Source: an uncultured Thermoplasmatales archaeon (GTDB lineage: Archaea > Thermoplasmatota > E2 > DHVEG-1). Taken from it: a stretch of DNA of 45,002 nucleotides. The notes below the pieces were generated by a model. That model did not search any database and was not told the DNA's origin. It was given only the letters and a program-made list of their open reading frames with translations. Where the stretch lies: NCBI GenBank assembly GCA_964628575.1, contig CAZVNH010000002.1, positions 1 to 45,002 of the forward strand, read 5' to 3'. Of this stretch, positions 7,965-43,328 are shown piece after piece; the first letter of the stretch is position 1, and each line of letters opens with the position of its first letter. The position numbers and the translations under genes were made by a program.

Positions 7965-7985
7965 AAGGTATTTAAATTAAATATT

Positions 7986-8276
7986 ATGGCTAATGAAAAT
8001 CAAAATAGTGATTTTGCAAAAAAGGGCGATATTTTAGAATTGAGATTGTATTTTCCAATAAAGGGATTTAACAGAGCTACATCTTATGTTGACCAACAGT
8101 TAATAACTACTCCATTATGTAGTAATATTAGGTTAGTGGATGTAGCAGAAGAGAGGTCAAGGGGTGGGCAAAGACCAGGATTGGATAAAGCATATACAAC
8201 ACAAGTAAGTGGTGCAAGCCATCCAGTATTGGTTATGACCTCTATTGTTTCAACTTATCTTGAAGCGGAGACTTAA
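7986..8276 (+). CDS. Hypothetical protein (96 aa)
   Basis: ORF in the late block. No clear Shine-Dalgarno. Confidence 0.5.
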   Translation: MANENQNSDFAKKGDILELRLYFPIKGFNRATSYVDQQLITTPLCSNIRLVDVAEERSRGGQRPGLDKAYTTQVSGASHPVLVMTSIVSTYLEAET

Positions 8277-8277
8277 T

Positions 8278-8673: not shown

Positions 8674-8678
8674 AAATT

Positions 8679-9356: not shown

Positions 9357-9362
9357 TTTAAA

Positions 9363-11679: not shown

Positions 11680-11690
11680 GGAAAAAATAA

Positions 11691-12326: not shown

Positions 12327-12338
12327 TGAGATTTTATA

Positions 12339-13988: not shown

Positions 13989-14018
13989 TATTATATATAA
14001 TAGTAGAAAGGAAATGTA

Positions 14019-14207
14019 ATGCCTACAATATCTGATGAATGTGGATTTGAAGTAACTTCTGATAATTTACAAGTTAGAACTACTGGAAATAATGATAAAA
14101 TTATTATAACCAAGGATTTGTCAGCAGATGAAGCAGCTTCCTTGGTTTATTTGGCTCAACAAGAAGGTATAACACTTTCAATTTCAATTAAATTAAAAGA
14201 ACCATAA
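14019..14207 (+). CDS. Small hypothetical protein (62 aa)
   Basis: AAGGAAA Shine-Dalgarno. Lies directly downstream of the fibre gene, so it could be a fibre chaperone. Confidence 0.5.
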   Translation: MPTISDECGFEVTSDNLQVRTTGNNDKIIITKDLSADEAASLVYLAQQEGITLSISIKLKEP

Positions 14208-14230
14208 TATTTTAAAATTAGGAAAATAAA

Positions 14231-18200: not shown

Positions 18201-18789
18201 TAGAATATTAGTAGGTCTTATGGTATATCCAAGAGGGGTTTTTAACCTCGCTTGGCAAAACTCTTTAAAACCTATGTATGAAGGAATAAAAACAGGAAAT
18301 TTAGGTCAAGCTTATAGAGGATTAGGAAATTTAGTTGCTTTATATATTGGAGCTTCACTTGCTCGAAGGTTGCTTTATAAACTAACTGGAAGAGAAGCTT
18401 ATGGATTAACTCAAACAATATTTGGTTATTCTCCTTTAGCTCCTGGCCCTGCTTGGTTAATTGAAAAAATGAACAGATTTAGTTGGACAGTTCAAGAAAA
18501 AGGAATGAGTGCTGCTACAGTAAATGAAATTGGTTCTACAATGGGAGATATGGCTGAATTTTTAATTCCATTTTGTGATATAGCTATTAATAGATATGAA
18601 GCTAAAAAAGATGTTCGTGGAGTAACCTTTTGGAACTTAATGAAAAAAGAATTAATGAGAAAATATTATCAAAGAACTGGAAAAAGATACACAAAAACCA
18701 ACCGTGATGATTGGCAGAAAATAGTTCATGTTTTATTTTCTGGTGGTTATGAAATTCCAGAAAAAAAGAAAAAAAGGAAGATTTGGTAA
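15226..18789 (+). CDS. Giant internal virion / ejection or tape-measure-like protein (1187 aa from ATG 15226)
   Basis: It is the largest ORF. It has Ala/Gly-rich hydrophobic segments (GAPLAAAAGATAALVTGG..., IIATGVAAITTLPA). The start is taken at the TAATG overlap rather than the upstream TTG. Confidence 0.6.
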   Translation: MAIEFKTAKPVTEPKVSFESAVPIEEAEVRKTSSLFGTFASAFGQSVINKPAVMLRGAEVYTPGKAYGLDPLLEKASITLQSLQNPEEVERIAKIAGGKLWPTGEDRKWYQIETKYIPEVLNTWAANVGDQIPLLLTTFAGRALGRIAGAPLAAAAGATAALVTGGPDPTDVATAPSVAAITSEVTAHIGGAAPLVAMEAGSFLDDANLLGIDRDIAERYARMYGIGSGVIEYAQQLWMLGRYRALSKPAQKTIIKKILSHVGGSVVEGLEEVSQQGLENKLLLKAAEEMKERNPDYEIPNLATWQGAKRAGIIATGVAAITTLPATTLSVTQQKAKQLRETRALKLYDNQQTEIDNQVKTNDTTLNPEKIAQQKTNTPTSRQRIDVQTKSRQLGYTRDQRQNLYNELTGKSWEEFNQRDAQIIVDYFDNQLNAITQSDKIGKTGLKDREQRILRGLSRTEDNFNKLIDFMISGNPLSENSNIREFQFDKYQTMAERIYKRSKKPNKPFISWARELQPARNVLYDIEMETGTNLYKNFKAAIYDSTIANQSATNLVNNVLERTGIKRRLETISVKQNEYLRWWLHDPTDEVGKSSWENMNEKTRNIGVALRNLYQSEGKYRIGLLRFKLWAEYNKKPKSVKKAQADVILKEGKEALAKGNFKDWIMKQDWVARENYYPSVREAQSLVDEIVTSLAPKDILKKFRRLPSTVPFEAYSREGKGSPIEGSVIRNTVNHFTRINTALLTMDNLVNFWKTFEGINPQQSDIDIMRDYVNNILGRGTKQKLPIRWAKKALRVFWKFYFLNPFKGAWFFTRNIMQSPAYGATQLSWKESAISLKDIALKKGATERVEDKELMWKSGISERMPVYQEWMMLEESKIRDPVRGYFANLAEEFGKVFIYSDEINRTITWLPIHRAAQRNIENLRAGKINFKQFVHRLKLDTLHPKQQIDLVNLIEEGNDREFIRQVAEYKTENIHFRYRTGLRSPSEQTLGGRILVGLMVYPRGVFNLAWQNSLKPMYEGIKTGNLGQAYRGLGNLVALYIGASLARRLLYKLTGREAYGLTQTIFGYSPLAPGPAWLIEKMNRFSWTVQEKGMSAATVNEIGSTMGDMAEFLIPFCDIAINRYEAKKDVRGVTFWNLMKKELMRKYYQRTGKRYTKTNRDDWQKIVHVLFSGGYEIPEKKKKRKIW

Positions 18790-20077: not shown

Positions 20078-20848
20078 CTAATCACCATATTTTTTAACAA
20101 TAGAAATATCTACTTTAAGAGGAACTGAAAGAATTACACTATTCTCCATTATATTTTTAATTTCTTTAGCAACCCATTTCATATATTTTTCATCCACTTC
20201 ATAAACAATTTCATCATGAACAGTTAAAACTGGTTTTATTTCAATAGTTGGATATTTTAAATACCAGGTTCTAACATTATTCATTGCAATTCTTAATATA
20301 TCTGCACAAGCACTTTGAATTAAAAAATTGAATGCTTGTCTAAATGCTTTATTTCCAGTAAAATCTAATCTTCTAATTCTACCAAATATTGTTTTAATTG
20401 GTTGATGATTTTGAACTCTAAATCTTGTTTCATTTATTTTCTTTTGAACTTTTGGGTATAATTTAAAAAATGAATAAAACCATTTTTTAACTTCATCTTC
20501 ATCTCTATTCAACCTTTCTGCAACTCCCCAAGGAGAAGAGCCATAAAGAATTGGAAAATTTACTCCATTCTTACCTATATATCTTTCTTCTTTATATTTC
20601 TCTAAATGTTTATTATATTCTGGATGAGATTTATATAATTCTGGTTCAGGTATATTTAAATTAAAACAAGCATTAGCAGTTGTTAAATGTAAATCCTTGT
20701 TCTGTTTTAATGCTGTAATCATAGCACCATCTTGACAAACAGAAGCACAAACTCTAAGTTCCTGATTATCAAAATCTGCTTTTATAAAGACTTTACCTTT
20801 TGGAGCAATAAACAAATTTCTAAAATTTGTTTTCATTTCTTCCACCAT
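20078..20848 (-). CDS. Family A DNA polymerase, C-terminal half (palm/fingers motifs A, B, C)
   Basis: Motif A is KADFDNQELR, motif B is RYIGKNGVNFPILYG and motif C is LTVHDEIVYEV. Confidence 0.85.
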   Translation of the reverse strand: MVEEMKTNFRNLFIAPKGKVFIKADFDNQELRVCASVCQDGAMITALKQNKDLHLTTANACFNLNIPEPELYKSHPEYNKHLEKYKEERYIGKNGVNFPILYGSSPWGVAERLNRDEDEVKKWFYSFFKLYPKVQKKINETRFRVQNHQPIKTIFGRIRRLDFTGNKAFRQAFNFLIQSACADILRIAMNNVRTWYLKYPTIEIKPVLTVHDEIVYEVDEKYMKWVAKEIKNIMENSVILSVPLKVDISIVKKYGD

Positions 20849-21307: not shown

Positions 21308-22378
21308 TTAAAATTCTCCTGGTCTCGGTAAATTTTGTAAATTAGGATTCCTTGAACTTAATCTTCCTGTAACTGTTCCAGTATTTTTATAATCAGTTCT
21401 TATTCGTCCATCCAATTGCACCCAATCTTCAAATGGATTAACAGATTTTTGCATAAAATCAGTAACTTTATTATATTTCCTAAGTAAATCTATAAACTTG
21501 TGTTGTCCAGCGAGTTTCTGTAATGAACTCTTAGAAACACTTAAATCTCCTCCATCAGTAAGTTCAGTTATTTTTAATCCAAGATACTTAGTTATAATTT
21601 CAACTAATTGCTTTGGGCTATTAAAATTAAATGATATAACTTCTGAAGTATCATCAAATAAATTCTTTTGAATTCCATAAGGCAATTTAGCAGATTTAAC
21701 CATCTCTAATTCTAAATTAAAAATCAAATCTTTCAACTCTTTCTTCAATGGCTCAACTTTATCCTTATCTGCAAGTATTCCATTAACCGCCAAATCTCTT
21801 AAACTAAATTGAAAAGGCATTTCTATTGAATAAAATAATTCATCTAACTTCTGATGTTGTAATTGAGGAGCAAATACTTCATAAAGTTCCCAAGTATTAA
21901 TACTATCATTAATTGCATATTCATAAAATTTTGGATGATTCTTAGGTAAACCTTCAACATCTTTATAATCAATAACTTTCTTCTTCTTTAATACATATCT
22001 TGCTAAATATTTTAATCCAGTTGGTCGATTTTCATCTAAAAGATGTGCAGCAGTTTTTGTGCAAAATATATTCTTTGTTAAATTTTTTAGTCCACATTTC
22101 CAAAAAACCATTAAATCAAATGGTGCTGAATGAAAAACAATCTTTTTTATATTATCCCAAAATTGTAAATTTATAAATCCAATTATATCTGCATATTCTT
22201 TATTCTCAAATAAATCTATATAACAAGCATTCTCTCCATTACAAAATGATATTCCAACTAATCTTAAATCATCATATCTTAAAGATGTTGTTTCAGTATC
22301 GACAGCAAATTTATCTGATTGATTATTATCAAACCAATCTTTAGTTTCTTTAAATATTGTTATAAATTGTCTATTCAA
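21308..22378 (-). CDS. Family A DNA polymerase, N-terminal half (3'-5' exonuclease + thumb)
   Basis: ExoI is AVDTETTSL, ExoII is HSAPFDLMVF and ExoIII is YAINDSINTWELY. It ends at TGRLSSRNPNLQNLP, which lies just before motif A in intact enzymes. Confidence 0.85.
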   Translation of the reverse strand: MNRQFITIFKETKDWFDNNQSDKFAVDTETTSLRYDDLRLVGISFCNGENACYIDLFENKEYADIIGFINLQFWDNIKKIVFHSAPFDLMVFWKCGLKNLTKNIFCTKTAAHLLDENRPTGLKYLARYVLKKKKVIDYKDVEGLPKNHPKFYEYAINDSINTWELYEVFAPQLQHQKLDELFYSIEMPFQFSLRDLAVNGILADKDKVEPLKKELKDLIFNLELEMVKSAKLPYGIQKNLFDDTSEVISFNFNSPKQLVEIITKYLGLKITELTDGGDLSVSKSSLQKLAGQHKFIDLLRKYNKVTDFMQKSVNPFEDWVQLDGRIRTDYKNTGTVTGRLSSRNPNLQNLPRPGEF

Positions 22379-22412: not shown

Positions 22413-22958
22413 TCATAATTCAATATCACTTTCAACCTCATTTCCCCAAACATCCCAACCAGGAGTTTTTTGTCGAGCAAAAAGTTCTATTTTAGACTGC
22501 ATTGGAAACATTTCTGTTATTCTATTTCTAATAGTATTTGGTTTCTGACTATGTTTTCTTTTTCTTTCAGATAAAAATTGTTTAATATTTCTACTTCCTC
22601 TTGGTTGTGGAATCTTTCCCTTCTTAGCAATTAAACAAATCTCAACAGATGATAATGTATAATATCCTGGATTTGTTATTTCTTTTTCCCAAACAAAAGC
22701 AATAGTAGAATATTCAAATCCCCATTTTTCCATTAATGGAAATGCTTCATTTAGTTTTGGACCTGTAGTCCATAAAAATAACAAACAATTCTTATCTGCA
22801 ATCAACCAAATTGGTAATTTATATAAATCTTTCATAGACATATACTTATATGGAGTTTGATTTTCTCCAGATAATAAACTTTCTGGAGTTAAACATCTAC
22901 CAGCATTATATTCCCAAGGCGGGTCAGCGTATATAATTTGATATTTTTTATTATTCAT
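22413..22958 (-). CDS. MT-A70 family DNA N6-adenine methyltransferase
   Basis: IIYADPPWEYN (the DPPW catalytic motif), with typical size. Confidence 0.85.
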   Translation of the reverse strand: MNNKKYQIIYADPPWEYNAGRCLTPESLLSGENQTPYKYMSMKDLYKLPIWLIADKNCLLFLWTTGPKLNEAFPLMEKWGFEYSTIAFVWEKEITNPGYYTLSSVEICLIAKKGKIPQPRGSRNIKQFLSERKRKHSQKPNTIRNRITEMFPMQSKIELFARQKTPGWDVWGNEVESDIEL

Positions 22959-23395: not shown

Positions 23396-23539
23396 TTACT
23401 CCCAATTTAGTTGTTCCAAAGCATATTTGTTAAGAGCTTCTTGTGCTTCCTCTTCAGTATCAAATGGGCCATGTTTAAAAGCCCACGTTTCATCCCAAAA
23501 ATACCATTTACCGTCTTTTCCTTTATGAATCGGACTCAT
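23396..23539 (-). CDS. Small hypothetical protein (47 aa)
   Basis: Hand translation gives MSPIHKGKDGKWYFWDETWAFKHGPFDTEEEAQEALNKYALEQLNWE. TAATG coupling. Confidence 0.4.
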   Translation of the reverse strand: MSPIHKGKDGKWYFWDETWAFKHGPFDTEEEAQEALNKYALEQLNWE

Positions 23540-24198
23540 TATAAACTCCTATTAGTTTGTTTTGAATAACCAACCAATTTATGATAGTTCCTTTCAAGTT
23601 CTATTGCATCAGCAATATTATGATTAAGAATGTATTTTAAAGACTTTTTATTTCCCTGTAACCCCTTAACCCAATGATGATTATCAAGCCTTGTTTTAAT
23701 AGTTTCTCCAAACAAAGATTCAGCAATTATATTTTGACGATTACTATGTAAACACAACAGTCTTTTGGCTAAATAATATGTATCCGTATGCTTTAATTCT
23801 CCATAAACAGGAAATTTAAGATTATAAATTATAGCTCTTGTTCTTAAAAAAGGCAAATCAAATTTAGTTCCATAATGAGTTATAATTCTATCAAATTTTC
23901 TCATATCTTTAATACAATCAGATACAACTTTTTTATCCATTGTTTTACTTTTTAATTCTTGAGGCGTAATAACTCTATGATAAATTTTTTCACTATTCTC
24001 AACTTTAATAGAATAAGAATAAACAATTCCAAAATTAGCTTTAAGATTGCTTGTTTCAATATCAAGGAAACCAATCTTTTCTTTTATATGTTTCTCAGTT
24101 TTATAACAATTTGGATGAGCGATTCCATTATGGCCGTGTTTACATTTAAAATTAAGTCTTTCCAATAATTGTTTTTTTGTCATTTGATTATAGTTCAT
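23539..24198 (-). CDS. RNase H-fold DEDD 3'-5' exonuclease (YprB / PolB-exo-like)
   Basis: IGFLDIETSNL, ITHYGTKFDLPFL and HNIADAIELE supply the Asp/Glu/Asp/His/Asp set. Confidence 0.7.
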   Translation of the reverse strand: MNYNQMTKKQLLERLNFKCKHGHNGIAHPNCYKTEKHIKEKIGFLDIETSNLKANFGIVYSYSIKVENSEKIYHRVITPQELKSKTMDKKVVSDCIKDMRKFDRIITHYGTKFDLPFLRTRAIIYNLKFPVYGELKHTDTYYLAKRLLCLHSNRQNIIAESLFGETIKTRLDNHHWVKGLQGNKKSLKYILNHNIADAIELERNYHKLVGYSKQTNRSL

Positions 24199-25271: not shown

Positions 25272-25778
25272 TTAATACCTAAAAAATTTATTATACATAA
25301 TTGTAAGCTCTTTAGGACTTTCATCAAATTCTTTTTGAACGCTTCCAACAAATCCAGTAAGCAATAATTCTTTGGCTTTATTATTAATTAAATTTTCTAC
25401 ACCGTCTTTTAAAAGTCTTTCTATTTCTAAACAAGGTAAATTTAATTCCTCTTTTGCATATTTTATTTCTATATCAACTCCCTTACTTTTCTCCCATTTA
25501 TAGGCAATTAAGCCAGAACAAAAATCATTTATAATACTTTTATCTGCATTAAGAACAGATTTAACTAAAACATTCTTATCTTTAAAAAGATATTGAACAA
25601 CTAAATCATTTTCGGCTGGACAATAATATTTCACTTCTGGATAATAAATTCTTAGTTGATTAGTAAAATGAATAGCTCTCATACAATTATCCATCATATA
25701 ATTTGGAGAAGCACTTTTACCCCAAGCACCCGTTATTGGGGTTGATACATAAACTATTGGTTTAATATCATTATCCAT
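25272..25778 (-). CDS. Nucleoside 2-deoxyribosyltransferase-like (DUF4406-like) protein
   Basis: IVYVSTPITG at the N-terminus and ...YKWEKSKGVDIEIKYA near the C-terminus match the family pattern as I recall it. Confidence 0.45.
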   Translation of the reverse strand: MDNDIKPIVYVSTPITGAWGKSASPNYMMDNCMRAIHFTNQLRIYYPEVKYYCPAENDLVVQYLFKDKNVLVKSVLNADKSIINDFCSGLIAYKWEKSKGVDIEIKYAKEELNLPCLEIERLLKDGVENLINNKAKELLLTGFVGSVQKEFDESPKELTIMYNKFFRY

Positions 25779-26140
25779 TATTTTACCTTTATAATTTTAG
25801 GAATATCATCTAATTCCTTTGGTAAAATTCCTTTTTGAATTCTTAATTTAGTAGCCAAATAAACTAAGGCATTCCAAACTATTGCTCTATCATGTCTTTC
25901 ATCTGTTAAACCAAGTTTCTCCTGTTGTATATGCCGTTCAAGAGAGTTCATTAATTCACTCAATGGAATTCCCTTTTCCCAATTTCTTTCACCATGAAGC
26001 TCCCCGCCTTCTTCAAAGTGAATAGCCACATCTAAAACAGCGTCTGGTGGAATTAAAACTGGTGTTCCTTTTCCCTCTGCAAATTGTTTTTTTGCACCAG
26101 TCAAAAAACTTCTTCTTTTTCCAAATTCCTTTTTAATCAT
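25778..26140 (-). CDS. DUF5664 / dATP-dGTP diphosphohydrolase N-terminal-domain-like protein
   Basis: The pattern K..LIPPDA...VA..FE.G...HGERNWEKG....L..S..RH recalls PF18909-type proteins. Confidence 0.45.
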   Translation of the reverse strand: MIKKEFGKRRSFLTGAKKQFAEGKGTPVLIPPDAVLDVAIHFEEGGELHGERNWEKGIPLSELMNSLERHIQQEKLGLTDERHDRAIVWNALVYLATKLRIQKGILPKELDDIPKIIKVK

Positions 26141-26652
26141 TTTAGTTCTCTTAATTGATTAAAACACTTCACACAATATTTTACTTGATATAAGCAATCT
26201 TCTAAAGCATTATGAGTTTTATCTTCCTTTTCTTTATTATAATCTAAATTAGACAAATCAACTAAAGTTCGTATATCTCTTGCTGTTCTATAATGAAAAG
26301 GCAAATTTAAATTGCAAACTTTGTAAGCATTAGATACAATAGGAAAATCAAAAGTAGCATGAGACCAAACAGTTTTAATTTTTTTATCACAAAAAGCTCT
26401 AAAAAGTTCTAATGCAATAATCAAATCTACTGGAAGTTCTAACCAACTTTTATTTTTTTGAATTCTCTACCAATTTATTGTTTGTTCATCAACAGTTAAT
26501 CCATACATTAAACAACTACCAACAGAAATATTTTGTAAAAATGTTCTTCCTATCTTTCCTGTATATCTATCAAAATAACAAGCACCAAGTTGTGTAATTA
26601 CAGCAGTTGTTTTTACATCTAATGTTTCAATATCCAACATCAAATCTTTCAT
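26137..26652 (-). pseudogene. DEDDh 3'-5' exoribonuclease-like gene interrupted by one in-frame TAG (26467-26469)
   Basis: Track ORFs 26467..26652 (LMLDIETLD...) and 26137..26424 (WSHATFDFP...HNALEDC) are in the same frame. They are joined through ..TINW-TAG-RIQKNKSWLELPVDL... Confidence 0.65.
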
Positions 26653-27899: not shown

Positions 27900-27928
27900 A
27901 TTATAATAAATTCATTTTAGTTTGTCAA
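27900..27928 (-). promoter_or_regulatory. Consensus sigma-70 promoter (TTGACA-17-TATAAT), leftward
   Basis: On the minus strand: TTTTTTCCTTGACAaactaaaatgaatttatTATAAT. It shares the T-rich/CC upstream context with three other promoters. Confidence 0.6.
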
Positions 27929-32502: not shown

Positions 32503-32910
32503 TCAAACAGGCCAAATATAAGGTAAATCATTTGGAACATTCCAATTAAATTGTTCATACCATTCTGGATTTTTTCTTAATAAATTTGATTTATGGCTAT
32601 TATGAAAATCTAAATTCCCAAACCAATTAGGATATTGCCAACAATGATAATGAGCAGGAAACCATATCTGCATATTATTTTTAAATCCACGTCCTATCCA
32701 TTCACAAATACACTCATTCATATATACTTTCAAACAATCTTCATAACCATTCCACATTTTTACAACAGGATGATTTTCCCATCCATTAGTCAAACCAGCT
32801 AATACTTTTAATATCGTGTAAGCTTCAACACGTTGTTTACCAAGTCTTTTATTATCAAGACATTGAACAGATATTACTAAATCAGGATATGGTAAAAATG
32901 TTTGAATTAT
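32503..32910 (-). CDS. Pyr_excise (T4 endonuclease V / DenV superfamily)-like protein lacking a canonical start codon
   Basis: The frame is open to 32910. The N-terminus reads (ATA)(ATT)QTFLPYPDLVISVQCLDNKRLGKQRVEAYTILKVL..GWENHPVVKMWNGYE, which matches the family N-terminus. The first ATG lies 39 codons inside the conserved domain. Confidence 0.55.
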   Translation of the reverse strand: MIQTFLPYPDLVISVQCLDNKRLGKQRVEAYTILKVLAGLTNGWENHPVVKMWNGYEDCLKVYMNECICEWIGRGFKNNMQIWFPAHYHCWQYPNWFGNLDFHNSHKSNLLRKNPEWYEQFNWNVPNDLPYIWPV

Positions 32911-33082
32911 TTATTTCCTCTTAATTTATCATCACATTCTATACAAATAAAATCACCATTAGGATAAGGTTTACCATTTTCTTCCCGTGTTGTTATATTA
33001 TCTAAATCTCTTACTCGATTAACAAACAAACCACTTCCTTGTTTCACACTTCGACCACATTCATTACAAATTTCAACTTTCA
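32907..33082 (-). pseudogene. Small zinc-ribbon gene disrupted by a 1-nt frameshift
   Basis: MKVEICND runs into a stop. The next frame, offset by 1 nt, continues CGRSVKQGSGLFVNRV...GDFICIECDDKLRGNK. Joining them restores a CxxC...CxxC ribbon. Confidence 0.4.
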
Positions 33083-33252
33083 TTATTTATTCTCCAATTT
33101 ACAACCACTTCGTAAATTATTTTTACCTTTTGATTTTATATAATAATCTTTTAATCTCATTCTATAATCTCTTTTATCAATTATAAAACGATGATTAAAA
33201 CTTCTTAAATCATCACTTAAAAATGCTGGTCGTTCACAACTATTATTCAACA
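33082..33252 (-). CDS. Small hypothetical protein (56 aa)
   Basis: Hand translation gives MLNNSCERPAFLSDDLRSFNHRF.... Overlap-coupled on both sides. Confidence 0.35.
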
Positions 33253-33412
33253 TCCTTTTTTACTCCGCTTTTACAATTAGTAAATTCAGAAGTAAACATA
33301 GATTTACCATTTTTATTAAAATCTAATAAAGTGCAACGTCCTGCAGGGTAAAACTGGTTTTTCCTTTTAGGGATTTCCCGTTTTTCCCAAAGCTCACAAT
33401 CTCTACAAATCA
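33242..33412 (-). CDS. Small Cys-containing protein (56 aa), first gene after the promoter at 33438
   Basis: Hand translation gives MICRDCELWEKREIPKRKNQFYPAGRCTLLDF.... GGAAG Shine-Dalgarno. Confidence 0.4.
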
Positions 33413-33437
33413 TTTTTTTCTTCCATTTTCAAGTAAC

Positions 33438-33466
33438 ATTATAACATATTGAAACTGGTTTGTCAA
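33438..33466 (-). promoter_or_regulatory. Consensus sigma-70 promoter (TTGACA-17-TGTTATAAT), leftward
   Basis: On the minus strand: TTTTTCCCTTGACAaaccagtttcaatatgtTATAAT. Confidence 0.65.
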
Positions 33467-33530: not shown

Positions 33531-34364
33531 TCAATCCAAATCTGTTGGCACAAGCCAGCCACTATCAACATCTATTCCACAATTAGAACATTTATCATCA
33601 ATAATTTCCACAATGTTTCCACAATAAAAACATTCTGCTTTTTTATATTTTGCTTCTAAAAGATTTTTACAGCTTTCACAAACTAATAAATTTCTATCTT
33701 CCAGCAAGTCTAATTCTTCCTCTGGATAAAATCCATTACAAATATCACAACTATTCCAAATTATTTTCTCATCTTCTTCTGTATTTTCTAAATCATACAC
33801 ATATCCATTATATCTCCAAGTAGAATTGGAAAATCCATTGGAAAACCAAACTCCATTTTTCCAATATCCCATATCTTCATTTATTATAATATAATGATTA
33901 TTTGAATTTAGAAAAATAAGTTTATTATACCATCCACAATACTTGCTTATAAACTTCATAGCTTCAACGGAATACATAAAAGATTTTGGCATAGTTTTTA
34001 ATACTCTGTAATTAAAATCCATTGTATCAGAATAAAAATTATTCCCCAATCCACTAAAAATCCCATTGTGAGCAAAGCCAACTTCTTCATTATTTTTAAC
34101 AAGAAATGGATGACAGTTTGCACTATCTTTTTTGCCAGAAGTAGCCAATCTAAAATGAATTACAAAATTACTTTTCGGATTTTCTCTTTCAGCTTGTCTA
34201 AAAGCTTTGTAGAATTTTCTAAATCCAAAATATCCTTTTTGAATTACAAGCTTTCTATTTTCAGTAAACATAAAACCTGCACCATCATCATTAGTATCAA
34301 ACCCATTTTTAAGCTCTCTACGAGTAATTACTGAATCAGCAGTTTTTAATATGGCTAAACACAT
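33531..34364 (-). CDS. Class-II (Ntn) glutamine amidotransferase with a C-terminal zinc-ribbon array
   Basis: Starts MCLAIL (the Cys2 nucleophile). Contains HFRLATSG..NCHPF..GFAHNGI. Four C-terminal CxxC dyads: CDIC, CESC, CFYC, CSNC. Confidence 0.75.
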   Translation of the reverse strand: MCLAILKTADSVITRRELKNGFDTNDDGAGFMFTENRKLVIQKGYFGFRKFYKAFRQAERENPKSNFVIHFRLATSGKKDSANCHPFLVKNNEEVGFAHNGIFSGLGNNFYSDTMDFNYRVLKTMPKSFMYSVEAMKFISKYCGWYNKLIFLNSNNHYIIINEDMGYWKNGVWFSNGFSNSTWRYNGYVYDLENTEEDEKIIWNSCDICNGFYPEEELDLLEDRNLLVCESCKNLLEAKYKKAECFYCGNIVEIIDDKCSNCGIDVDSGWLVPTDLD

Positions 34365-34367
34365 ATT

Positions 34368-35561
34368 TTAATAAAATCCCTTATTTTTTAACCAGCGATA
34401 TAGATTATTAAATTCTTTAGAATAATTTTTAACATAATCTAAAAATGATGCTACATTTACATATCGAGACGGAGTTTCGAATGTATAATTTACTAAAGCT
34501 TGTAAAAATTCAATGTTTTTCCAAAAACTTAAAGGATTCAAAGTTCCCCTAAAAATTCTAATCTCTATTGTATCAGGATTTTGCAAATTTACTGCACAAT
34601 GTCGTTCATGATTTCCATTTTTATTTTTCGCTTTATAAATCAAATCTCTTCCTTTATTTTCATCAACAACTTTATCTAAAGTCGCCCATTGGTTTAAATT
34701 ACTTTTGTTTCTTTGACTAATCTTTAAAATAAATTCTGGATTTTCGTAGAAAAACTTTAACAACCTATATAAATGCCACGTTCCAAAATAATTTTTAGAT
34801 AAATGTATATGGATTCCACAAGAATCCGTCTTAAAACTTATAAAACCACGTTTGCTAATAGTTAAAATCTTTAACCATTTATCAGCATTTTCCTTTAACC
34901 ATTGATAAGTAGCAGGATGAGACACAATTTCAAAACCATTATATAAACTGCCATCTTCTTTAGCAAATACAAATTCAGGTAAATTATCTGTTTCTTTTTT
35001 AATATCTCCACTGCTTTTTTCAACTTCTAATTCAATACCAAAAAATAATTTTTTTTCTGATATTGTTTTTTCGTATTTTCCTAAATAAAAATTAAAACAA
35101 GGTCTATAATTATATGAGTGCAAATTTTCAATAATCTGATGTCCTTCTATTCTATCCATACATCTTTCGCATAGATGACATTGTTCCTCACTACTCCAAT
35201 GTATCTCACCAGCAAGATAATACTCATCACAGTTTTCGCAATAAGCAAAATAACTTTCAAAACAGTTATTGCAATAATAATGAGAGTGCCATAATACCAT
35301 ATCATCGAAAGAACAAATATCCCCACAATTAACACATTCTCTATAATTTTCTGCACAGGGTTGGCACAAAAATCTTCCATCTATAATAACACAATCATTT
35401 TTATAGAACAGTTCTCCACAATCTTCACATTCTACTAACAATTCTTCTGCACAATTATCACAGTAAATTTTACCATCAAATTCTGCTTTATCAGTTTCGC
35501 TAAAAATGGAAGTATGACAATTATCACAGTAGCATATTATTTTTTCTTTATTATCGCTCAT
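34368..35561 (-). CDS. Amidoligase_2 (glutamine synthetase/GCS2-like COOH-NH2 ligase) with an N-terminal zinc-ribbon array
   Basis: Contains FFGIELEVE, EDGSLYNGFEIVSHP and CGIHIHL. Eight N-terminal CxxC dyads. The start is taken at ATG 35561, because the upstream part of the track ORF overlaps a 26-codon TM peptide ORF in another frame. Confidence 0.7.
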   Translation of the reverse strand: MSDNKEKIICYCDNCHTSIFSETDKAEFDGKIYCDNCAEELLVECEDCGELFYKNDCVIIDGRFLCQPCAENYRECVNCGDICSFDDMVLWHSHYYCNNCFESYFAYCENCDEYYLAGEIHWSSEEQCHLCERCMDRIEGHQIIENLHSYNYRPCFNFYLGKYEKTISEKKLFFGIELEVEKSSGDIKKETDNLPEFVFAKEDGSLYNGFEIVSHPATYQWLKENADKWLKILTISKRGFISFKTDSCGIHIHLSKNYFGTWHLYRLLKFFYENPEFILKISQRNKSNLNQWATLDKVVDENKGRDLIYKAKNKNGNHERHCAVNLQNPDTIEIRIFRGTLNPLSFWKNIEFLQALVNYTFETPSRYVNVASFLDYVKNYSKEFNNLYRWLKNKGFY

Positions 35562-35813
35562 ATAACTTAATAACCCGCTAACGTGCAAGCTATGAAAATG
35601 GCTATAAAAATAACTATTATCCAAACGAACCAATCGTAATGATACATTATTTTGATTCCTAATTATTTTTTCTTAAAACTATCACAAACTTTATAGCGAC
35701 TTGTTACTACATTATATTTTTTACACACAGCGTCAATAAGCAATCCTTTATACTTAAAATATCTACATATTTCACATAATTCTAATCTATGGTTAGGTGG
35801 TTTTTTCACTACT

Positions 35814-35990
35814 TTAATCTTCAATTTCTATATTTTCAGTATCGCAGAAATCAGCAAATCCGCAATTATAAGCTGTCGGGTCTAATTCTTTTAATATCTC
35901 TGATGAAGTAAAACTAATCCCCATTACGTCAATATCTCCTTCTCCGTTAAGATACTCATCATACAGTTTTAATGCTTCATATTCAGTCAT
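35814..35990 (-). CDS. Small strongly acidic protein (58 aa)
   Basis: MTEYEALKLYDEYLNGEGDIDVMG...DFCDTENIEIED. Lies at the early end of the leftward unit. Confidence 0.45.
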   Translation of the reverse strand: MTEYEALKLYDEYLNGEGDIDVMGISFTSSEILKELDPTAYNCGFADFCDTENIEIED

Positions 35991-36224
35991 TTTAAAAATA
36001 CCAAACAAATTTTATTAACCTAATCCAAATAAAAAGAGAAATAATTAAGGAAAAAGCAATAAAACATAATACTAATAACTGACCTAAAACTTGTAACCAT
36101 TCTTTCATCCTAAAATTTCCCCAATTTTCTGTTTCCCTTTTTATATTTATTTTCAAATAAACTACAGGTTGAAGATATTGATAAATTTGTTTTATGTGAT
36201 TTTTCTGTATTTTAAAATATAATT

Positions 36225-36496: not shown

Positions 36497-36723
36497 ACTC
36501 TTTACCCCTTAACAATTTGAAAAAACTTTTACAAGACTTAACATTAAACAAAATATAAAAATCACGATTGTTAAAAGGTGTTTTTGCCTTACCGTATTCC
36601 TTAACACTATTGATATTTGAAAGAACTTTATAATTGCTGCTGGTTTTTTTAAGGTAAACCAGCAAACCTTACCGAAGAGAGGGGTGTGAATCATTTTACT
36701 TTTTTACTCTATTTTATAATAAC

Positions 36724-36748
36724 ACGGGGGATTTATTCCCCCGTTTTA
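36724..36748 (+). terminator. Perfect 7-bp GC hairpin followed by T4
   Basis: ACGGGGG (36724-36730) pairs with CCCCCGT (38-44), followed by TTTT. Confidence 0.45.
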
Positions 36749-37075
36749 AGGAGGAGAGAGTAAATGATGACAATTCACTTGTCAAAGAACTACAGTATTA
36801 GTATAACACTACTATATTATACAAATCCAATCCCACCATAACACAATCCAATGACCGCCATAACCTTTTATGACACAAGGCAGGTATCTACGACTTGTAT
36901 AGTATCGTTTAAAAATTTTCATATCCCCACTATACCAAATCGGAATTAACAAATCAAGAAAAAACTGAGAAAAATTAAAAAATTGTTAAAAACTTTTGAA
37001 TTTGTTAGTTATCTATTTAACAAATAATGAGGATTGCGTAGTATTAGAGAATCTTATAATAGTATAAGCAGGAAT

Positions 37076-37111
37076 AACGAGGGTTGGTATAATCCCCCCT
37101 TGTTGTTTTTT
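37076..37111 (+). terminator. Orientation-specific rho-independent terminator (plus strand)
   Basis: AACGAGGG (37076-37083) pairs with CCCTTGTT (37097-37104), with one G.U pair that would be a C.A mismatch on the other strand. Followed by G + T6. Confidence 0.55.
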
Positions 37112-37422
37112 GTAAACATCAATGTTGATTTTTTACAACATTGGCCTGCCTTTACTTAAAATCTATGCCACAATACAACACACTACATATAGTGTGCCCA
37201 TTTAATCAACAATACACAAGATATAGTATGTCTTTATTTACTTAAAATCAACGGGGGAGGTAGGTTGGATTATCGGACATTATGGGCAGGGGTGGTATCC
37301 ACCAAGAAAATTATTTTTAAAATTTTGAAAACTTTTCTTAAATAAAAAATCTCCATTTTTAAGTCAATATTCCAGATTTTTAAACTTTTTTAAAAAATTC
37401 TTAAAAAATCCAAAGATTTTCC

Positions 37423-37451
37423 TTGACAAATGACTTTAAATATGGTATAAT
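37423..37451 (+). promoter_or_regulatory. Consensus sigma-70 promoter (TTGACA-17-TGGTATAAT), rightward
   Basis: TTTTCCTTGACAaatgactttaaatatggTATAAT. Confidence 0.7.
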
Positions 37452-37529
37452 ATATAGGTGAAATGGAAATAAAAATAAAATACTTTAAAATTTTTGGGAA
37501 CTTTTTTATTAATTATTTGTCTAATATAT

Positions 37530-37709
37530 ATGTATTGCCCTAATTGTGGACAACCTGTTGATGAGATAAAATGTAATTCTCCAGTAGAGATTTTTTGTCC
37601 AAATTGTAATGAATCCTTCTGGATTGAAGAAGAAACTCCCTATGGTCAAATGCTCCAGGATGGATTTGAGCTTATTAATCCTTATGAGGAAAATAGTAAT
37701 TATAACTAA
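37530..37709 (+). CDS. Small zinc-ribbon protein (59 aa from ATG 37530)
   Basis: MYCPNCG...FCPNCNESFW. Confidence 0.55.
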   Translation: MYCPNCGQPVDEIKCNSPVEIFCPNCNESFWIEEETPYGQMLQDGFELINPYEENSNYN

Positions 37710-37862: not shown

Positions 37863-37891
37863 TTGACTTTTAACTTATAATATGTTATAAT
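37863..37891 (+). promoter_or_regulatory. Consensus sigma-70 promoter (TTGACT-17-TGTTATAAT), rightward
   Basis: TTTTTTCCTTGACTtttaacttataatatgtTATAAT. Confidence 0.7.
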
Positions 37892-38808: not shown

Positions 38809-39024
38809 ATGGAAAATTTTGAAAAATTACAAAAAACAATAAATTGGCTTAATAGACATCCAAGAACTTTGTCAGGAACTATTTTTAATTTTAGAAGAAT
38901 TGGACGAAATGAAATTTGTCCATTATGTGATAGTGGATTGAAATATAAAAAATGTTGTTTGGTTTCGGAAAATCTGAAGAATCGGTATATTGAAAACAAA
39001 TATAAAGAAAGTTTAAATGGCTAA
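38809..39024 (+). CDS. SEC-C motif small protein (71 aa)
   Basis: CPLCDSGLKYKKCC matches the SEC-C metal-binding motif. Confidence 0.55.
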   Translation: MENFEKLQKTINWLNRHPRTLSGTIFNFRRIGRNEICPLCDSGLKYKKCCLVSENLKNRYIENKYKESLNG

Positions 39025-39601
39025 AGGTGGAGGAAAAATTAGAACAGGTTCGATAGTTCATAATTCTGATTTACTTCCTATGGCAGAGAAATTGGCAGAA
39101 TTAGGAATTCCAAGAAAGACTATAGCATTTGTTTTGGGTTTAAATGGAAAAGCTTTTGCTAAATTATGGGATTCTTCTGGTGATTTGCGTAAAGCAATAG
39201 AATCTGGTGAAAAGTTAGCTCAGACTGATTTTATTGCTACAATTATTAAAGAAGCTGCTGGTTATGATTATAAGTTAAAAAAAACTACTTATAAATATTT
39301 AGACCCTACAGATGAAAAGCCAATAAGAGTTAAAGTTGGAGAAACTATTGAAACTCGACATCAACCAGCAAATGCTGCCCTTGCTACTTTTTTGGCTTGT
39401 AATTTAATGCCTAATGATTTCCGTAAGGAAACTCAAATTAAAATTGATAAGAGAACTCAATCTCTTATAGTTGGAGGAGATTTAGGAACAGAACATTTAC
39501 GTAAATTGGCTGGCTCATTTATGGAATTAGCTGATAAACAAGATAAAAAGCAAATTGAATCAAAAGAAGTAGAGAATGAAACTAAGTCTCGAAAATCCTA
39601 A
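39017..39601 (+). CDS. Putative terminase small subunit
   Basis: 194 aa. Overlaps the TerL start. HTH-like segment IPRKTIAFVLGLNGKAF. Confidence 0.45.
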   Translation: MAKGGGKIRTGSIVHNSDLLPMAEKLAELGIPRKTIAFVLGLNGKAFAKLWDSSGDLRKAIESGEKLAQTDFIATIIKEAAGYDYKLKKTTYKYLDPTDEKPIRVKVGETIETRHQPANAALATFLACNLMPNDFRKETQIKIDKRTQSLIVGGDLGTEHLRKLAGSFMELADKQDKKQIESKEVENETKSRKS

Positions 39602-40499
39602 AGATTTCTATAAAATTATTCCAAAAGATATAGGAGAAAATTTATCTTTTCGTAAAGATTTATACAATCTTCTTGCTGTCGATGGTGGATTTAAAGAAGC
39701 ATTTTTGGAATTATGTTGGCAAAAACCATCAATATTTTTTAGTTCTTGTATGTTTACTTTTAATCCTAAAAATGCACCAGGATTTAGAAATCCCCCATTT
39801 ATTTTAAGACCTCAACAAGTTATTGTTGTTGATGAGTTGCACAAAGCAATTATTGAGGGATATGATTGTGCTTTAGATAAAACAAGGGATGAAGGAGCAA
39901 CTGTAATTTTATGTAGTTTATTTGATTTTCATTGGCTTGTAACAAATCAATCAATGTTTTTGCTTGGTTCTCGAAAAGAAGAATATGTTGATAAGTCAAC
40001 TGAAATTCAAGGAGACAGGGTTATAGGAGACCATAAATGTCTATTTCATAAAGTTCTTTATGGAATTATGACTCTTCCTAAATGTTTAAGACCAAAATAT
40101 TTTAAGAAAACTCATTTACATTTTGAAAATTTAGAAAATGGTTCTTGTATTGATGGTGAAGCAACAAATGAATCGTTTGGTGGTGGAGATAGAAGAACTG
40201 CTGTTGGAGTTGATGAATTTGGTTTAATAGAATCAAGAATTGCAGAAACTATTCGTCATACGTTATCTGATGTTTCTGATTGTATTATTTATAATTCTAC
40301 TCAAGGACCAGCAGCAGGACATCCATATACGAGATTGTTAAATTCTGGAAAATTAAAAATATTGGAATTGCCTTGGGAAAAAAATCCTGAAAAAAATCAG
40401 GGACTGTATCGAAGTAATGCTTATGGAGAAGTTGAAATAGTAGATATTCCATATTGGGAAAAAAGAATTCCAAATTTAAAAGAATATGCTAAAAATTAA
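39576..40499 (+). CDS. terL: Terminase large subunit, ATPase domain (first of two frames)
   Basis: Walker A-like DKTRDEGAT, Walker B AVGVDEFG and coupling motif NSTQG. Confidence 0.8.
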   Translation: MKLSLENPKDFYKIIPKDIGENLSFRKDLYNLLAVDGGFKEAFLELCWQKPSIFFSSCMFTFNPKNAPGFRNPPFILRPQQVIVVDELHKAIIEGYDCALDKTRDEGATVILCSLFDFHWLVTNQSMFLLGSRKEEYVDKSTEIQGDRVIGDHKCLFHKVLYGIMTLPKCLRPKYFKKTHLHFENLENGSCIDGEATNESFGGGDRRTAVGVDEFGLIESRIAETIRHTLSDVSDCIIYNSTQGPAAGHPYTRLLNSGKLKILELPWEKNPEKNQGLYRSNAYGEVEIVDIPYWEKRIPNLKEYAKN

Positions 40500-41562
40500 A
40501 CAACAAAATTTACCAGAAGAATATCAAAATTTGCTAATTTTTGATGGTGGGGAAAGTAATTTTGGTGGATATAGGTCTCCTTGGTATGATGCAGAATGTA
40601 GAAGAAGAGATAAACAGGATGTAGCTCGAAATATTGATAGACGTGCAGTAGAACTTGGAGATAGATTTTTTGATGAGAGCATTTGTAAGCAAATTGAAAA
40701 TAAATATATAAGACCCCCTGACTTTTCTGGTGAAATTATTTTTAATAAAAGTAGAAACGGCAAAATTTGTAATGTTAAATTTGAAAATAATTATGGACGA
40801 AAAAGATTTAATTGGTGGGGAGAATTAAAATCTGGAAGGCCAAGCCAGCTTTATAATTATGTGGTTGCTGTTGACCCTTCAGGAGGAACTGGAGCAGCTA
40901 ATAGTATAATTAGTGTTTATAATGTGAATCTTTTTGAAAAAGTTGGAATATTTGCTTGTCCAAATACTGCATCTGAAAGTTTGGCTGATTATGCTATAGC
41001 AATTTGTAAATGGGTTGGTGGAGCAACATCCAAATCTTTGCTTGGATGGGAAGCAAACGGAATAGGAGCTACTTTTGGAAGGAGAGTTTTATTCCATAAT
41101 TATCCTCTTGTTTATATAAGTAGAGATGAAAAAGCAAGAACTAAAAAACGGAAAAATAGATATGGATGGTGGTCAACTTCTGGACAAAATGGAACTAAAT
41201 TTGATTTATTGACTGAACTTCGTGCTGCTTTAAGTGAAAGTCTTAAAGAAAAAAATGATATTCAATATATTGCTTTAATTATTCATGATATTGAAACTTT
41301 AAGAGAATTAAGAGATTATAAATTTTTAAGTTCTAATGAGATTGGGCCTTCGAGTGGAATTGATGATTCTACTGGAGCAAGATATTCTCATGGAGATAGA
41401 GTAATAGCAGATGGAATTGGTGTTTTATTAATGACACATCAACCAAAAGCTGTTGTTCAGGAAATTAAGAATTATCCTAAAAATAGTTTTGGATATAGAT
41501 TTCAGCAGTGGAAGGAAAAGAAAGAAAAAAATAAACGAACTCAACGGAGATATTTATATTAA
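40486..41562 (+). CDS. terL: Terminase large subunit, RNase H-like nuclease domain (second frame)
   Basis: VVAVDPSGGTGAANS, LLGWEANGIG and HGDRVIADG supply the acidic residues. There is no Shine-Dalgarno before ATG 40486. Confidence 0.8.
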   Translation: MLKIKQQNLPEEYQNLLIFDGGESNFGGYRSPWYDAECRRRDKQDVARNIDRRAVELGDRFFDESICKQIENKYIRPPDFSGEIIFNKSRNGKICNVKFENNYGRKRFNWWGELKSGRPSQLYNYVVAVDPSGGTGAANSIISVYNVNLFEKVGIFACPNTASESLADYAIAICKWVGGATSKSLLGWEANGIGATFGRRVLFHNYPLVYISRDEKARTKKRKNRYGWWSTSGQNGTKFDLLTELRAALSESLKEKNDIQYIALIIHDIETLRELRDYKFLSSNEIGPSSGIDDSTGARYSHGDRVIADGIGVLLMTHQPKAVVQEIKNYPKNSFGYRFQQWKEKKEKNKRTQRRYLY

Positions 41563-43328
41563 TGGCTAAACAAAAACAATTAGCAGAAAAAAATGTTCGT
41601 ATGAGATTTCCAGTTCGGTTACAAAGAATTGCTAAAGCTTGGCAATCTCTTACTGAAGCTCCTTTAAATAATCGTGTTAGAATATTAAAATCATGGGCAT
41701 CTGGATATTTTGATAAAGGTGCTGGAAGCACTCATTTAGTGAACTTAATTGATAGAGGAATTTGCACTTTAACCCCATTTTTAGTTGAAGGAAATCCTAA
41801 AGTTCTTGTTGAAAGTGAAATTGGAAATTTAAGGTCATGGGCATATATCACAAGATTGGCTATGAACTTTTTTATAAATAAGATAAAATTGGCCGAAAAT
41901 GTTTTAATTCCTGCTGCACAAAATTCCATGTATGGGGCAGGAATTGTAAGAACTTCTTTTGTTCATAATAGAGGTTATCAAAATGATGAAACTGAAATTA
42001 GACTTGGAATTCCATCAGTTGATGTAATTGATGATTCAAATTATATTGGAGACCCATCAGCAAGTTGTATAAAGGATTTTTTGATTGAGGGGGATATTTA
42101 TAGACTTCCAACTGATTATGCAAAAGATTTTTTTCCGAGTAAATATGCAGATTATATTAAACCTGATTGTAAATTAAGATATGACCATTCTCCAACAGAT
42201 ATTGCTAAAAAGAATTTTGATAGAAATATATTTTCATTAAGGGATTTTACTACTTTTATAGATTTATATTTATATGATGAAGATATTGTTGTAACAATTA
42301 TGCCTGAAGGAAAAAAGGCAATTATATTAAATACTATTGATTGGGGAGATGTTCCTGGAAGTCCGTATGATAAGCTTGGATATAAATATTTTCCTGAAAT
42401 GCCAATACCAATACCTCCAGCTTGGGCCTGGTATGACCAAGATACAGAATTGAATTTTCTTCTACAGAAGATGAAAGAACAGGCTGCATCTCAAAAAGAT
42501 GTTTTGGCTTATGAAGGGTCTGCTAAAGAAGATGCTAAAAGAGTTGCAGCTATATCTACACAAGGAACGGCTCAGGTTGATGATGTTCAAGCATTAAAAG
42601 CTTTAAGTTTTGGCGGTGTTAATCCACAAAATTATCAATGGGCTAATTTTATTGAAAGTCATTTTGCTACTGAAATTTCTAATTTATATATGCTTGGAGG
42701 AAAGGAAGCACAATCTCCCACTCTTGGGCAGGAACAAATGTTAATGGCAAATGCTTTGAGATATGTTTCAAGTATGTCAACTAAATTTCATAATTTTATG
42801 GAATCCGTTGTGAGAAAATTAGCTTGGCATTTTTGGACAGACCCAACAGTTTATGTTCCTGTTATAAGAGAACTTCCTGGTATAGACAATTTTCCTGCTG
42901 TTTTTTCAAGAGCAGAGCAAGTTGGAGATTTTTATGATTTTGTTTTTAAGGTTATTCCATATTCTGCTCAAAGAGAAACACCTAATGTTAAATTTCAAAA
43001 AATGTTACAATTTTTAACTCAATGGATTTTACCAACATTACCTGTTGCTGCACAACAGGGAGTTACTGTTGATTTTAATATGGCAACTAAAGTTTTATCA
43101 GATTATTTTGGTATTGATACATTGAATCAATGGTATAGAAGTTTATATCCAAATGAGCTTCAAAATGTGGGTTATAAAATGTTGCCAACTCCAGCAAAAG
43201 GTGCTGGTGATAGATTTGGGGCAAGTTATGGAAGTAGAATGGCAAATTTAAATCAATTTACCAGTTCTGAAAGAGCCAATAAATCAAGTCCCCCGCAAAG
43301 TAAAGAAAGTGAATTATATAATATATAG
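41562..43328 (+). CDS. Putative portal protein (588 aa)
   Basis: TAATG coupling to TerL. The call rests on size and position, with no motif-level identification. Confidence 0.6.
   Translation: MAKQKQLAEKNVRMRFPVRLQRIAKAWQSLTEAPLNNRVRILKSWASGYFDKGAGSTHLVNLIDRGICTLTPFLVEGNPKVLVESEIGNLRSWAYITRLAMNFFINKIKLAENVLIPAAQNSMYGAGIVRTSFVHNRGYQNDETEIRLGIPSVDVIDDSNYIGDPSASCIKDFLIEGDIYRLPTDYAKDFFPSKYADYIKPDCKLRYDHSPTDIAKKNFDRNIFSLRDFTTFIDLYLYDEDIVVTIMPEGKKAIILNTIDWGDVPGSPYDKLGYKYFPEMPIPIPPAWAWYDQDTELNFLLQKMKEQAASQKDVLAYEGSAKEDAKRVAAISTQGTAQVDDVQALKALSFGGVNPQNYQWANFIESHFATEISNLYMLGGKEAQSPTLGQEQMLMANALRYVSSMSTKFHNFMESVVRKLAWHFWTDPTVYVPVIRELPGIDNFPAVFSRAEQVGDFYDFVFKVIPYSAQRETPNVKFQKMLQFLTQWILPTLPVAAQQGVTVDFNMATKVLSDYFGIDTLNQWYRSLYPNELQNVGYKMLPTPAKGAGDRFGASYGSRMANLNQFTSSERANKSSPPQSKESELYNI

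Follow-up and report, generated by a model that had tools for sequence, protein, structure and literature searches.

We analysed a 45,002-nt stretch of DNA (contig CAZVNH010000002.1 of the GenBank assembly GCA_964628575.1, deposited as an uncultured Thermoplasmatales archaeon), hereafter the window, and focused on two adjacent genes of its minus strand, which encode a putative ATP-dependent ligase of the Amidoligase_2 family (the ligase) and a putative class-II glutamine amidotransferase (the GATase), both extended by acidic zinc modules. The window, with a size of ~45 kb and a GC content of ~30%, looks like the whole genome of a novel phage. Our results indicate that the pair adds a new, divergent example to a phage cassette that is already known and widely annotated, and is not a new kind of system. 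As for its function, the reading that we favour, with a confidence just short of even, is that the two proteins are subunits of a glutamine-dependent amidoligase, fed with ammonia (NH3) by the GATase, and that phages and other mobile elements carry the two genes as one mobile cassette.

This cassette is among the most widespread enzyme pairs of phages and mobile elements still without a substrate, and the phages that carry it have actinobacteria, proteobacteria, Firmicutes and possibly archaea as hosts. The genome papers that cite the work attribute the pairing of a COOH-NH2 ligase with a class-II GATase in phages to Iyer, Abhiman, Burroughs & Aravind 2009 (Mol Biosyst 5:1636), and the phage descriptions consulted annotate the pair in phiEco32, in Pseudomonas phages of the LUZ24/tf/PaP3/TC6 type, in Mycobacterium phage Marvin (gp105/gp106) and in the OM43 phages MEP401/402. 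The published role proposals (cell-wall modification and superinfection exclusion, secondary metabolites, or auxiliary metabolic genes) are all predictions, and no experimentally established substrate for the pair was found in the searchable literature. An earlier sequence-only reading of the window had stated that the two families co-occur in phages with no established substrate, which agrees with this literature. The substrate question is thus genuine but not specific to the window, which provides a compact, minimal and high-confidence example. To this question our analysis adds several constraints, namely that the cassette is self-contained, that its zinc modules are acidic, LIM-like and typical of the family, and that the predicted glutamine/gamma-glutamyl site is intact.

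Family assignment, active sites and zinc modules

In the ligase, four LIM-like Zn(Cys)4 fingers are arrayed at the N-terminus and precede a C-terminal catalytic domain with a predicted glutamine synthetase (GS) fold, and the majority of the 703 ligase homologues display the same architecture. The ligase matches the Pfam family Amidoligase_2 (PF12224) over residues 207-357 with 29.7 bits for a cutoff of 22, and the PHROG families phrog_16683 (5.7e-30) and phrog_22302, both of unknown function, as well as phrog_2443 and phrog_7469, which are labelled 'amidoligase enzyme'; none of the NCBIfam models matched it. The alignment of 87 ligase homologues displayed nine invariant residues (E177, E179, D203, E211, H251, H253, R284, E333 and R335), and we take the resulting ExE / E / HxH / R / ExR series to be the residues with which GS-fold ligases handle metal, ATP and the acyl-phosphate. 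In the AlphaFold2 model, which has a predicted local distance difference test (pLDDT) score of 92.8, Foldseek matched GmaS (9qur), YbdK (1r8g/1tt4) and GS (5dm3) at a probability of 1.00, together with Dop and PafA at ~1, the TM-scores being only ~0.3 in all cases. By sequence, the catalytic domain matched no solved GS-fold enzyme even at E<=10, and the likeness is at the fold level only. Homologue alignments and the model identify the ligase as a member of the Amidoligase_2 family that has a GS fold and all of these residues intact, and its predicted activity is ATP-dependent carboxylate-amine ligation. This is the family to which the sequence-only reading had assigned it from the motifs GIELEVE (at residue 175), EDGSL (202), GFEIVSHP (209) and GIHIHL (249), all of which are present; the PF12224 score above cutoff, the conserved catalytic residues and the GS/GCS2/Dop-PafA fold sustain that assignment.

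In the GATase, residues 1-178 form the catalytic domain, and the C-terminal tail that follows is acidic. The best Pfam family of the GATase is GATase_4, the YafJ/EgtC type, for which it scores marginally below the cutoff (22.9 bits, cutoff 23), and it reaches 19.5 bits for GATase_6 (cutoff 27). It matches phrog_25883 at 9e-13 and obtains only ~20 bits with the NCBIfam models glmS and purF, against cutoffs >350. The GATase family profile matched the glutaminase domain of GlmS (1xff) at 5.6e-7, with R72 aligned on GlmS R73 and N100-G101 on GlmS N98-G99. R72, T75, H85, N100, G101 and D113 do not vary among 30 GATase homologues and C2 hardly varies, D113 being probably equivalent to GlmS D123 as judged from its motif position; moreover, 72 of the 77 related viral GATases begin with MC. 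The AlphaFold2 model (pLDDT 86.4 overall, with block means of at least 92 over residues 1-170 and of 81 over residues 171-180) matched GFAT-1 (7e-7) and GlmS 1xff (4e-6) in Foldseek, then EgtC (2e-4 to 1.5e-3), and also the YafJ-like 1te5 and PurF. The alpha-beta-beta-alpha fold of the N-terminal nucleophile (Ntn) hydrolases is borne out by the model and these matches.

As far as alignments and models can tell, the GATase is therefore an Ntn class-II glutaminase, in which the Cys1 nucleophile and the N100-G101 oxyanion hole are intact and glutaminase activity is predicted. Its Arg/Asp pair is predicted to bind the free alpha-carboxylate and alpha-amino group of glutamine or of a gamma-glutamyl moiety, and this site is intact as well. 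The class-II assignment had been proposed from the motifs HFRLATSG, NCHPF and FAHNGI, which stand at residues 70, 83 and 97, and it now relies on the GlmS profile alignment, the GFAT/GlmS fold matches and the conserved C2, R72, N100-G101 and D113.

The eight CxxC dyads counted earlier in the ligase and the four in the GATase were all recovered. In the ligase they form four Zn(Cys)4 sites that recur every ~32 aa (C12/15-C34/37, C45/48-C66/69, C76/79-C97/100 and C108/111-C131/134), with an additional overlapping CxxC at 128, and in the GATase they form two sites, or ribbons (C206/209-C229/232 and C245/248-C259/262). The ligase cysteines C76/79/97/100/108/111/131/134 are invariant in 29 diverse homologues and the remaining finger cysteines are invariant or nearly so, therefore the CxxC pattern is not a product of chance. 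The GATase ribbons are kept in close relatives (P0122-P0134) and variable further out. At least four N-terminal dyads were found in 52 of the 80 related viral ligases, the other 28 having a Cys-poor N-terminal region of ~200 aa, and at least one C-terminal ribbon in 69 of the 77 related viral GATases. The description of these arrays as unusual, made in the sequence-only reading, thus holds relative to housekeeping enzymes but not within the phage family, where such decoration is the norm.

The appendages are acidic (net charge -23 and pI 4.3 for the ligase array, net charge -15 for the GATase tail), opposite to the catalytic domains, which are basic (+9 and +8), and this pattern is family-wide; the median charge of the ligase N-terminus is -26 in Zn-rich forms and -36.5 in Cys-poor forms. 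Nucleic-acid binding by the zinc arrays is unlikely given these charges, and acidic zinc modules fit protein docking or subunit assembly better. The two subunits possibly dock on each other reciprocally through their appendages, and both proteins may also dock on a common partner, as had been suggested.

The ligase array is LIM-like by profile and by modelled fold but is not a canonical LIM domain. The ligase family profile matched LIM proteins of the PDB (CRP1 at 5.9e-5, PINCH at 6.5e-5, with a range of 6e-5 to 1e-3 for CRP1, PINCH and FHL), Foldseek matched the array to the tandem LIM domains of LMO2, PINCH and Isl1, and a Pfam LIM match was obtained for some ligase homologues, as well as a full-length match in BFVD named 'LIM domain containing protein'. 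The Pfam scan of the window ligase itself returned no LIM hit. As in the LIM domain (PF00412), the fingers are paired Cys4 treble-clef/ribbon fingers and their internal x17-19 spacings fit; in contrast, they are evenly spaced, with linkers of 6-7 residues instead of the 2-residue linker of canonical LIM, and their zinc ligands are all Cys. An exhaustive HMMER search with the zinc-finger region also found the same LIM-like array, with 4-9 repeats, at the C-terminal side of an unrecognised domain of ~300 aa without Pfam match, in P0153, P0154, P0161, P0171 and ~16 other metagenomic proteins, which are mobile-element-like. Since it is found on at least two different effector domains, the array behaves as a portable adaptor.

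Synteny and spread of the two-gene cassette

A profile scan identified the cassette in at least 595 IMG/VR contigs and in 437 stretches of cellular genome assemblies, and locus statistics were computed for the 80 best viral and 80 genome loci (160 in all), 77 of the viral loci having room downstream of the ligase. The GATase lies immediately downstream on the same strand in 76 of these 77, and after a gap of 312 nt in the last one. Clustering by BLAST linkage placed the +1 gene with the GATases in 76/80 of the viral loci and 72/80 of the genome loci, and after dereplication at 50% identity an adjacent GATase was kept in 39 of 42 ligase clusters. Between ligase and GATase, the viral loci have a median gap of 2.5 nt and the genome loci one of -1 nt. 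Moreover, in a mirror-tree comparison the pairwise identities of both proteins are correlated with r=0.91, a value that 0/500 permutations reached.

In addition, neighbour clustering over the 160 loci revealed no third gene conserved with the pair, and a phmmer search with the 12 flanking ORFs (open reading frames) of the window revealed none that travels with the cassette. Neither ATP-grasp nor GGCT partners were found among the window ORFs scanned (the minus-strand unit and the large plus-strand ORFs) or in the 160 related loci, where GGACT is absent as well. Judged from these loci, the cassette is self-contained, and its two genes are nearly always adjacent, in the same order, apparently translationally coupled and co-evolving. 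The synteny count proposed in the sequence-only reading thus returned a near-universal association. That reading had also listed wrong family placement, loss of the catalytic residues in homologues and lack of synteny as grounds for giving it up, and none of the three was observed.

The closest relatives of the pair are metagenomic, with 45-52% identity, and the identity to members from cultured phages is at most 42% for the GATase and ~30% for the ligase. Among the contigs from GTDB genomes (L087-L166, mostly Oscillospiraceae, Ruminococcus and Clostridia), several copies of the cassette occur per genome in some metagenome-assembled genomes, e.g., five loci in the assembly CAZHZL01 and four in JAZQIL01. 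In Oscillospiraceae and Ruminococcus loci the pair lies beside genes of serine or tyrosine recombinases, relaxase-like proteins and primases, and the GATase of L087-L166 has no zinc ribbons and a more canonical form resembling PurF.

Two phage loci illustrate other surroundings of the pair. In Acinetobacter phage vB_AciJM_313 (L172, 1-8011), a 676-aa amidoligase and a GATase are co-directional with their neighbours, a cluster comprising ribose-phosphate pyrophosphokinase, nicotinamide phosphoribosyltransferase, a cyclic-phosphate-processing protein and polynucleotide kinase; such genes are linked to NAD+ reconstitution and RNA repair. In L173 (MW202828.1, 3218-6218), a GATase_4-GGACT fusion that ends in a CxxC...CxxC ribbon, and whose GGACT domain scores 65.7 bits, comes after a divergent 574-aa amidoligase, which is below detection by Pfam (E<=0.01) and by the family hidden Markov model but has recognisable motifs.

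Candidate reactions of the pair

In the scheme that we favour, the GATase would hydrolyse glutamine and pass NH3 to the ligase, which would activate a carboxylate as acyl-phosphate and then convert it to an amide. The acidic zinc appendages would hold the two basic catalytic domains together and/or recruit a basic or macromolecular target, and early in infection the pair may serve host takeover, counter-defence or the exclusion of competitors. The target, which has no gene beside the pair, would presumably be a host component or a conserved metabolite. As a GATase undoing the gamma-glutamyl ligation made by its partner would be futile, the simplest two-enzyme scheme that avoids futility is NH3 donation. 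The directed evolution of the Pseudomonas phage FJK.R9 resulted in missense mutations in both the amidoligase and the adjacent GATase-like gene in both evolved lines (PMC11450229). This parallel mutation in an evolved therapeutic phage, the tight coupling and the early/accessory position would make an answer on the substrate of the cassette broadly relevant, both for phage-host conflict and for annotating thousands of genomes.

Several observations weigh against NH3 donation. No biochemical data on any Amidoligase_2 member were found in the literature, and sequence searches revealed no solved structure related to the ligase. One of the proteins that the GATase matches in structure is EgtC, and stand-alone class-II GATase-like proteins of this kind act as hydrolases without donating NH3. 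To our knowledge, all characterised GS-fold ligases activate the gamma-carboxylate of glutamate, and the product could therefore be a gamma-glutamyl conjugate instead of an amide. Finally, the GATase-GGACT fusion of MW202828 points to gamma-glutamyl-amine bonds and not to simple amidation, and the ATP-grasp and GGCT added in the extended systems of other phages point to the same bonds.

These bonds are at the centre of an alternative that we consider possible but doubtful, in which the ligase would put glutamate or a gamma-glutamyl (or peptide) tag on an amine of a protein, polyamine or metabolite, and the GATase would trim this conjugate, or a derivative formed downstream of it, as an EgtC-like gamma-glutamyl amidohydrolase without donating NH3. 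Precedents for such ligation are GCS, PuuA, GmaS and PafA, and EgtC is a gamma-glutamyl hydrolase working beside a GCS-type ligase in ergothioneine synthesis. The best Foldseek matches of the ligase (gamma-glutamylmethylamide synthetase, YbdK/GCS2 and Dop/PafA), the clear match of the GATase to EgtC and its best Pfam family, the position of the MW202828 fusion directly after a divergent amidoligase, and the combinations of amidoligase with GGCT and ATP-grasp in other phages and prophages are all consistent with tagging. However, a second enzyme that undoes the first would be futile without an intermediate enzyme, and across the 160 loci there is neither a conserved third gene nor a GGACT; moreover, the strict 1:1 coupling and co-evolution resemble two subunits more than a writer-eraser pair. 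A related 'deamidate-then-ligate' scheme of Dop/PafA type, acting on a C-terminal Gln of a protein, was considered and is unlikely, since the GATase keeps the Arg/Asp pair, which requires a free alpha-carboxylate and alpha-amino group.

We attach a rather low probability to a more specific proposal, in which the pair would be an undescribed protein-modifying enzyme of phages and mobile elements, a GS-fold ligase of two subunits fuelled by glutamine, whose acidic LIM-like adaptors dock on a conserved basic host protein, the carboxylates of which would be amidated or ligated to an amine and the target neutralised early in infection. The docking target may be, e.g., a nucleoid, ribosomal or defence protein, and the modified carboxylates may be those of Glu, Asp or the C-terminus. 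Note that neither protein of the pair matched the defence-system models of PADLOC. If true, this proposal would mean a new post-translational chemistry of host takeover or counter-defence across hundreds of phage lineages.

Modification of the cell envelope for superinfection exclusion is improbable in our view. Under this explanation, the pair would amidate or peptide-modify a carboxylate of a peptidoglycan precursor or surface polymer, thereby altering the receptors of competing phages. PMC10580990, PMC11318856 and PMC11706807 repeat such a prediction for phiEco32-type systems and attribute it to Iyer et al. 2009, the glutamine-dependent amidation of lipid II by MurT/GatD is an established precedent (PMC3267633), and the cassette occurs in temperate or integrative elements of Oscillospiraceae. 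However, inspection of both sequences revealed no signal peptide or transmembrane segment, and docking-type acidic zinc fingers are found instead; the hosts of the carriers (mycobacteria, proteobacteria, Firmicutes and, reportedly, Poseidoniales archaea, which are without peptidoglycan) differ widely in envelope; and the genome in the window is of the lytic type, no integrase having been found among the ORFs scanned.

There is similarly little chance that the pair merely boosts the nitrogen, glutamine or glutamate metabolism of the host or makes a small gamma-glutamyl metabolite without any macromolecular target: the label of auxiliary metabolic gene is used for it in several phage genome papers (including PMC10580990, PMC10945688 and PMC11706807), and a phage that encodes GATase, amidoligase, glutathione synthase and GGCT was reported to stimulate growth, an effect not tied to these genes (PMC10945688), but the two proteins have no close homologue among host metabolic enzymes (as the NCBIfam scores above indicate), conserved multi-finger docking modules are unexpected on a simple metabolic enzyme, and other proteins, which are mobile-element-like, have this zinc array joined to an unrelated domain.

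Genome context and comparison with known systems

Both genes were found where the sequence-only reading had placed them, on the minus strand and with the short gap it gave (Table 1). The ligase ORF is open at its 5' side as far as a TTG at 35633, and the ATG start is favoured because the homologues begin within ~10 residues of the first CxxC.

Table 1. Coordinates of the gene pair, its domains and the promoter-like sequences of the window
Feature	Position	Strand	Details
GATase-like gene	33531..34364	minus	277 aa, starts MCLAIL
Ligase gene	34368..35561	minus	397 aa counted from ATG
Spacer between ligase stop codon and GATase ATG	34365..34367	minus	3 nt; probable translational coupling
Acidic tandem zinc-finger array, ligase residues 1-145	35127..35561	minus	Cys positions, charge, homologue alignment
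Catalytic domain, ligase residues ~160-397	34371..35084	minus	Homologue alignments, GS-like fold
C-terminal tail with two Zn(Cys)4 ribbons, GATase residues ~179-277	33531..33830	minus	Cys positions, charge
Near-perfect extended -10 sigma70 promoters	33438-33466 (-), 27900-27928 (-), 37423-37451 (+), 37863-37891 (+)		TTGACA-N14-TGnTATAAT, two exact

No near-identical DNA was found in cultured phages, and the genome has no close cultured relative. The pair is located ~1 kb inside a leftward block (19.3-36.7 kb), which starts at a divergent non-coding region and encodes an exonuclease, SSB, a DnaB-type helicase, a primase, a split PolA and a methyltransferase; the pair comes after four small ORFs. 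The layout is the same in the relatives L167, L169 and L171 and in phage MEP402, in agreement with the position claimed in the earlier reading, and the neighbours named there, a small transmembrane peptide (35992-36156) and an acidic protein (35814-36008, net charge -13), are both present. Such a position would be compatible with early expression and with a role of the pair in host takeover or counter-defence. The sole perfect sigma70-type promoter nearby on the minus strand (33466-33438) is downstream of the pair; being directly 3' of the GATase gene, it implies that the pair is on a transcript separate from the genes that follow. No promoter driving the pair was found, the strong consensus promoters being downstream of it or on the other strand.

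Several other features of the window were observed. The non-coding region between the divergent gene blocks (36700-37450, ~750 nt) contains several G/C-rich patches and, at 36744-36724 of the minus strand, a strong G+C-rich hairpin followed by a T-rich tail; Rfam gave no match in this region. Tiny CxxC proteins of 53-71 aa flank the pair (35663-35824, 33243-33413 and 32907-33083 on the minus strand, 37494-37709 on the plus strand), and none of them is conserved alongside the cassette in related loci. On the plus strand, 1-18789 and 39017-43328 contain large late/structural ORFs without PHROG or Pfam hit, including an ORF of 1193 aa (15208-18789), and the ORF 41562-43328 had no tblastn match in 50,697 phage records; at the sequence level, the virion module is very divergent. 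Within the leftward block, the family-A DNA polymerase is apparently split in three on the minus strand, with the exonuclease at 23539-24198 and polymerase parts at 21308-22378 and 20078-20848; a DNA methyltransferase (22413-22958) lies between the exonuclease and the polymerase parts, and a gap of ~460 nt separates the polymerase halves. A protein with a MazZ-like dATP/dGTP diphosphohydrolase N-domain (25778-26140, minus strand) adjoins an Rv2179c-like 3'-5' exoribonuclease (26137-26424, minus strand). No PurZ-like gene was seen near the MazZ-like gene, which recurs in L167 and L171 together with Metallophos (both) and DUF6899 (L167 only).

Among known systems, the pair is closest in kind to the phage associations of Amidoligase_2 with a class-II GATase, with which it shares the families, the ligase-then-GATase order and the tight adjacency; in MEP402, the pair is likewise upstream of primase, helicase and polymerase genes. 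In contrast to the extended type (phiEco32/LUZ24/PA11, with ligase, class-II GATase, ATP-grasp and GGCT), the window carries the minimal two-gene version, with neither ATP-grasp nor GGCT among the ORFs scanned. The GATase belongs to the same Ntn class II as AsnB, GlmS and PurF, and the proposed logic, in which a glutaminase would supply NH3 to an ATP-dependent partner that activates a carboxylate, would resemble that of AsnB (a class-II GATase with an ATP-dependent synthetase), NadE and MurT/GatD. However, the activating subunit has a GS/GCS2 fold and not that of an ATP-pyrophosphatase or Mur-ligase as in AsnB and MurT/GatD, so that the pair may work like these enzymes without being a member of their families.

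With PafA/Dop, GCS2 (YbdK), GmaS and GS, the ligase shares the GS-type fold and the conserved acidic/His/Arg constellation, whereas it has no detectable sequence similarity to them and TM-scores of ~0.3. PafA shows that GS-fold enzymes can modify proteins. Compared to PafA/Dop, the ligase has an N-terminal zinc-finger array in place of their C-terminal domain, and no Pup-like gene is found near the pair. Like the EgtC/YafJ-type proteins, the GATase has a stand-alone class-II domain of ~180-230 aa with Cys1; it differs from them in its C-terminal double zinc ribbon and in its obligate amidoligase neighbour, and the glutaminase domains of GlmS and GFAT outscore EgtC in the Foldseek comparison.

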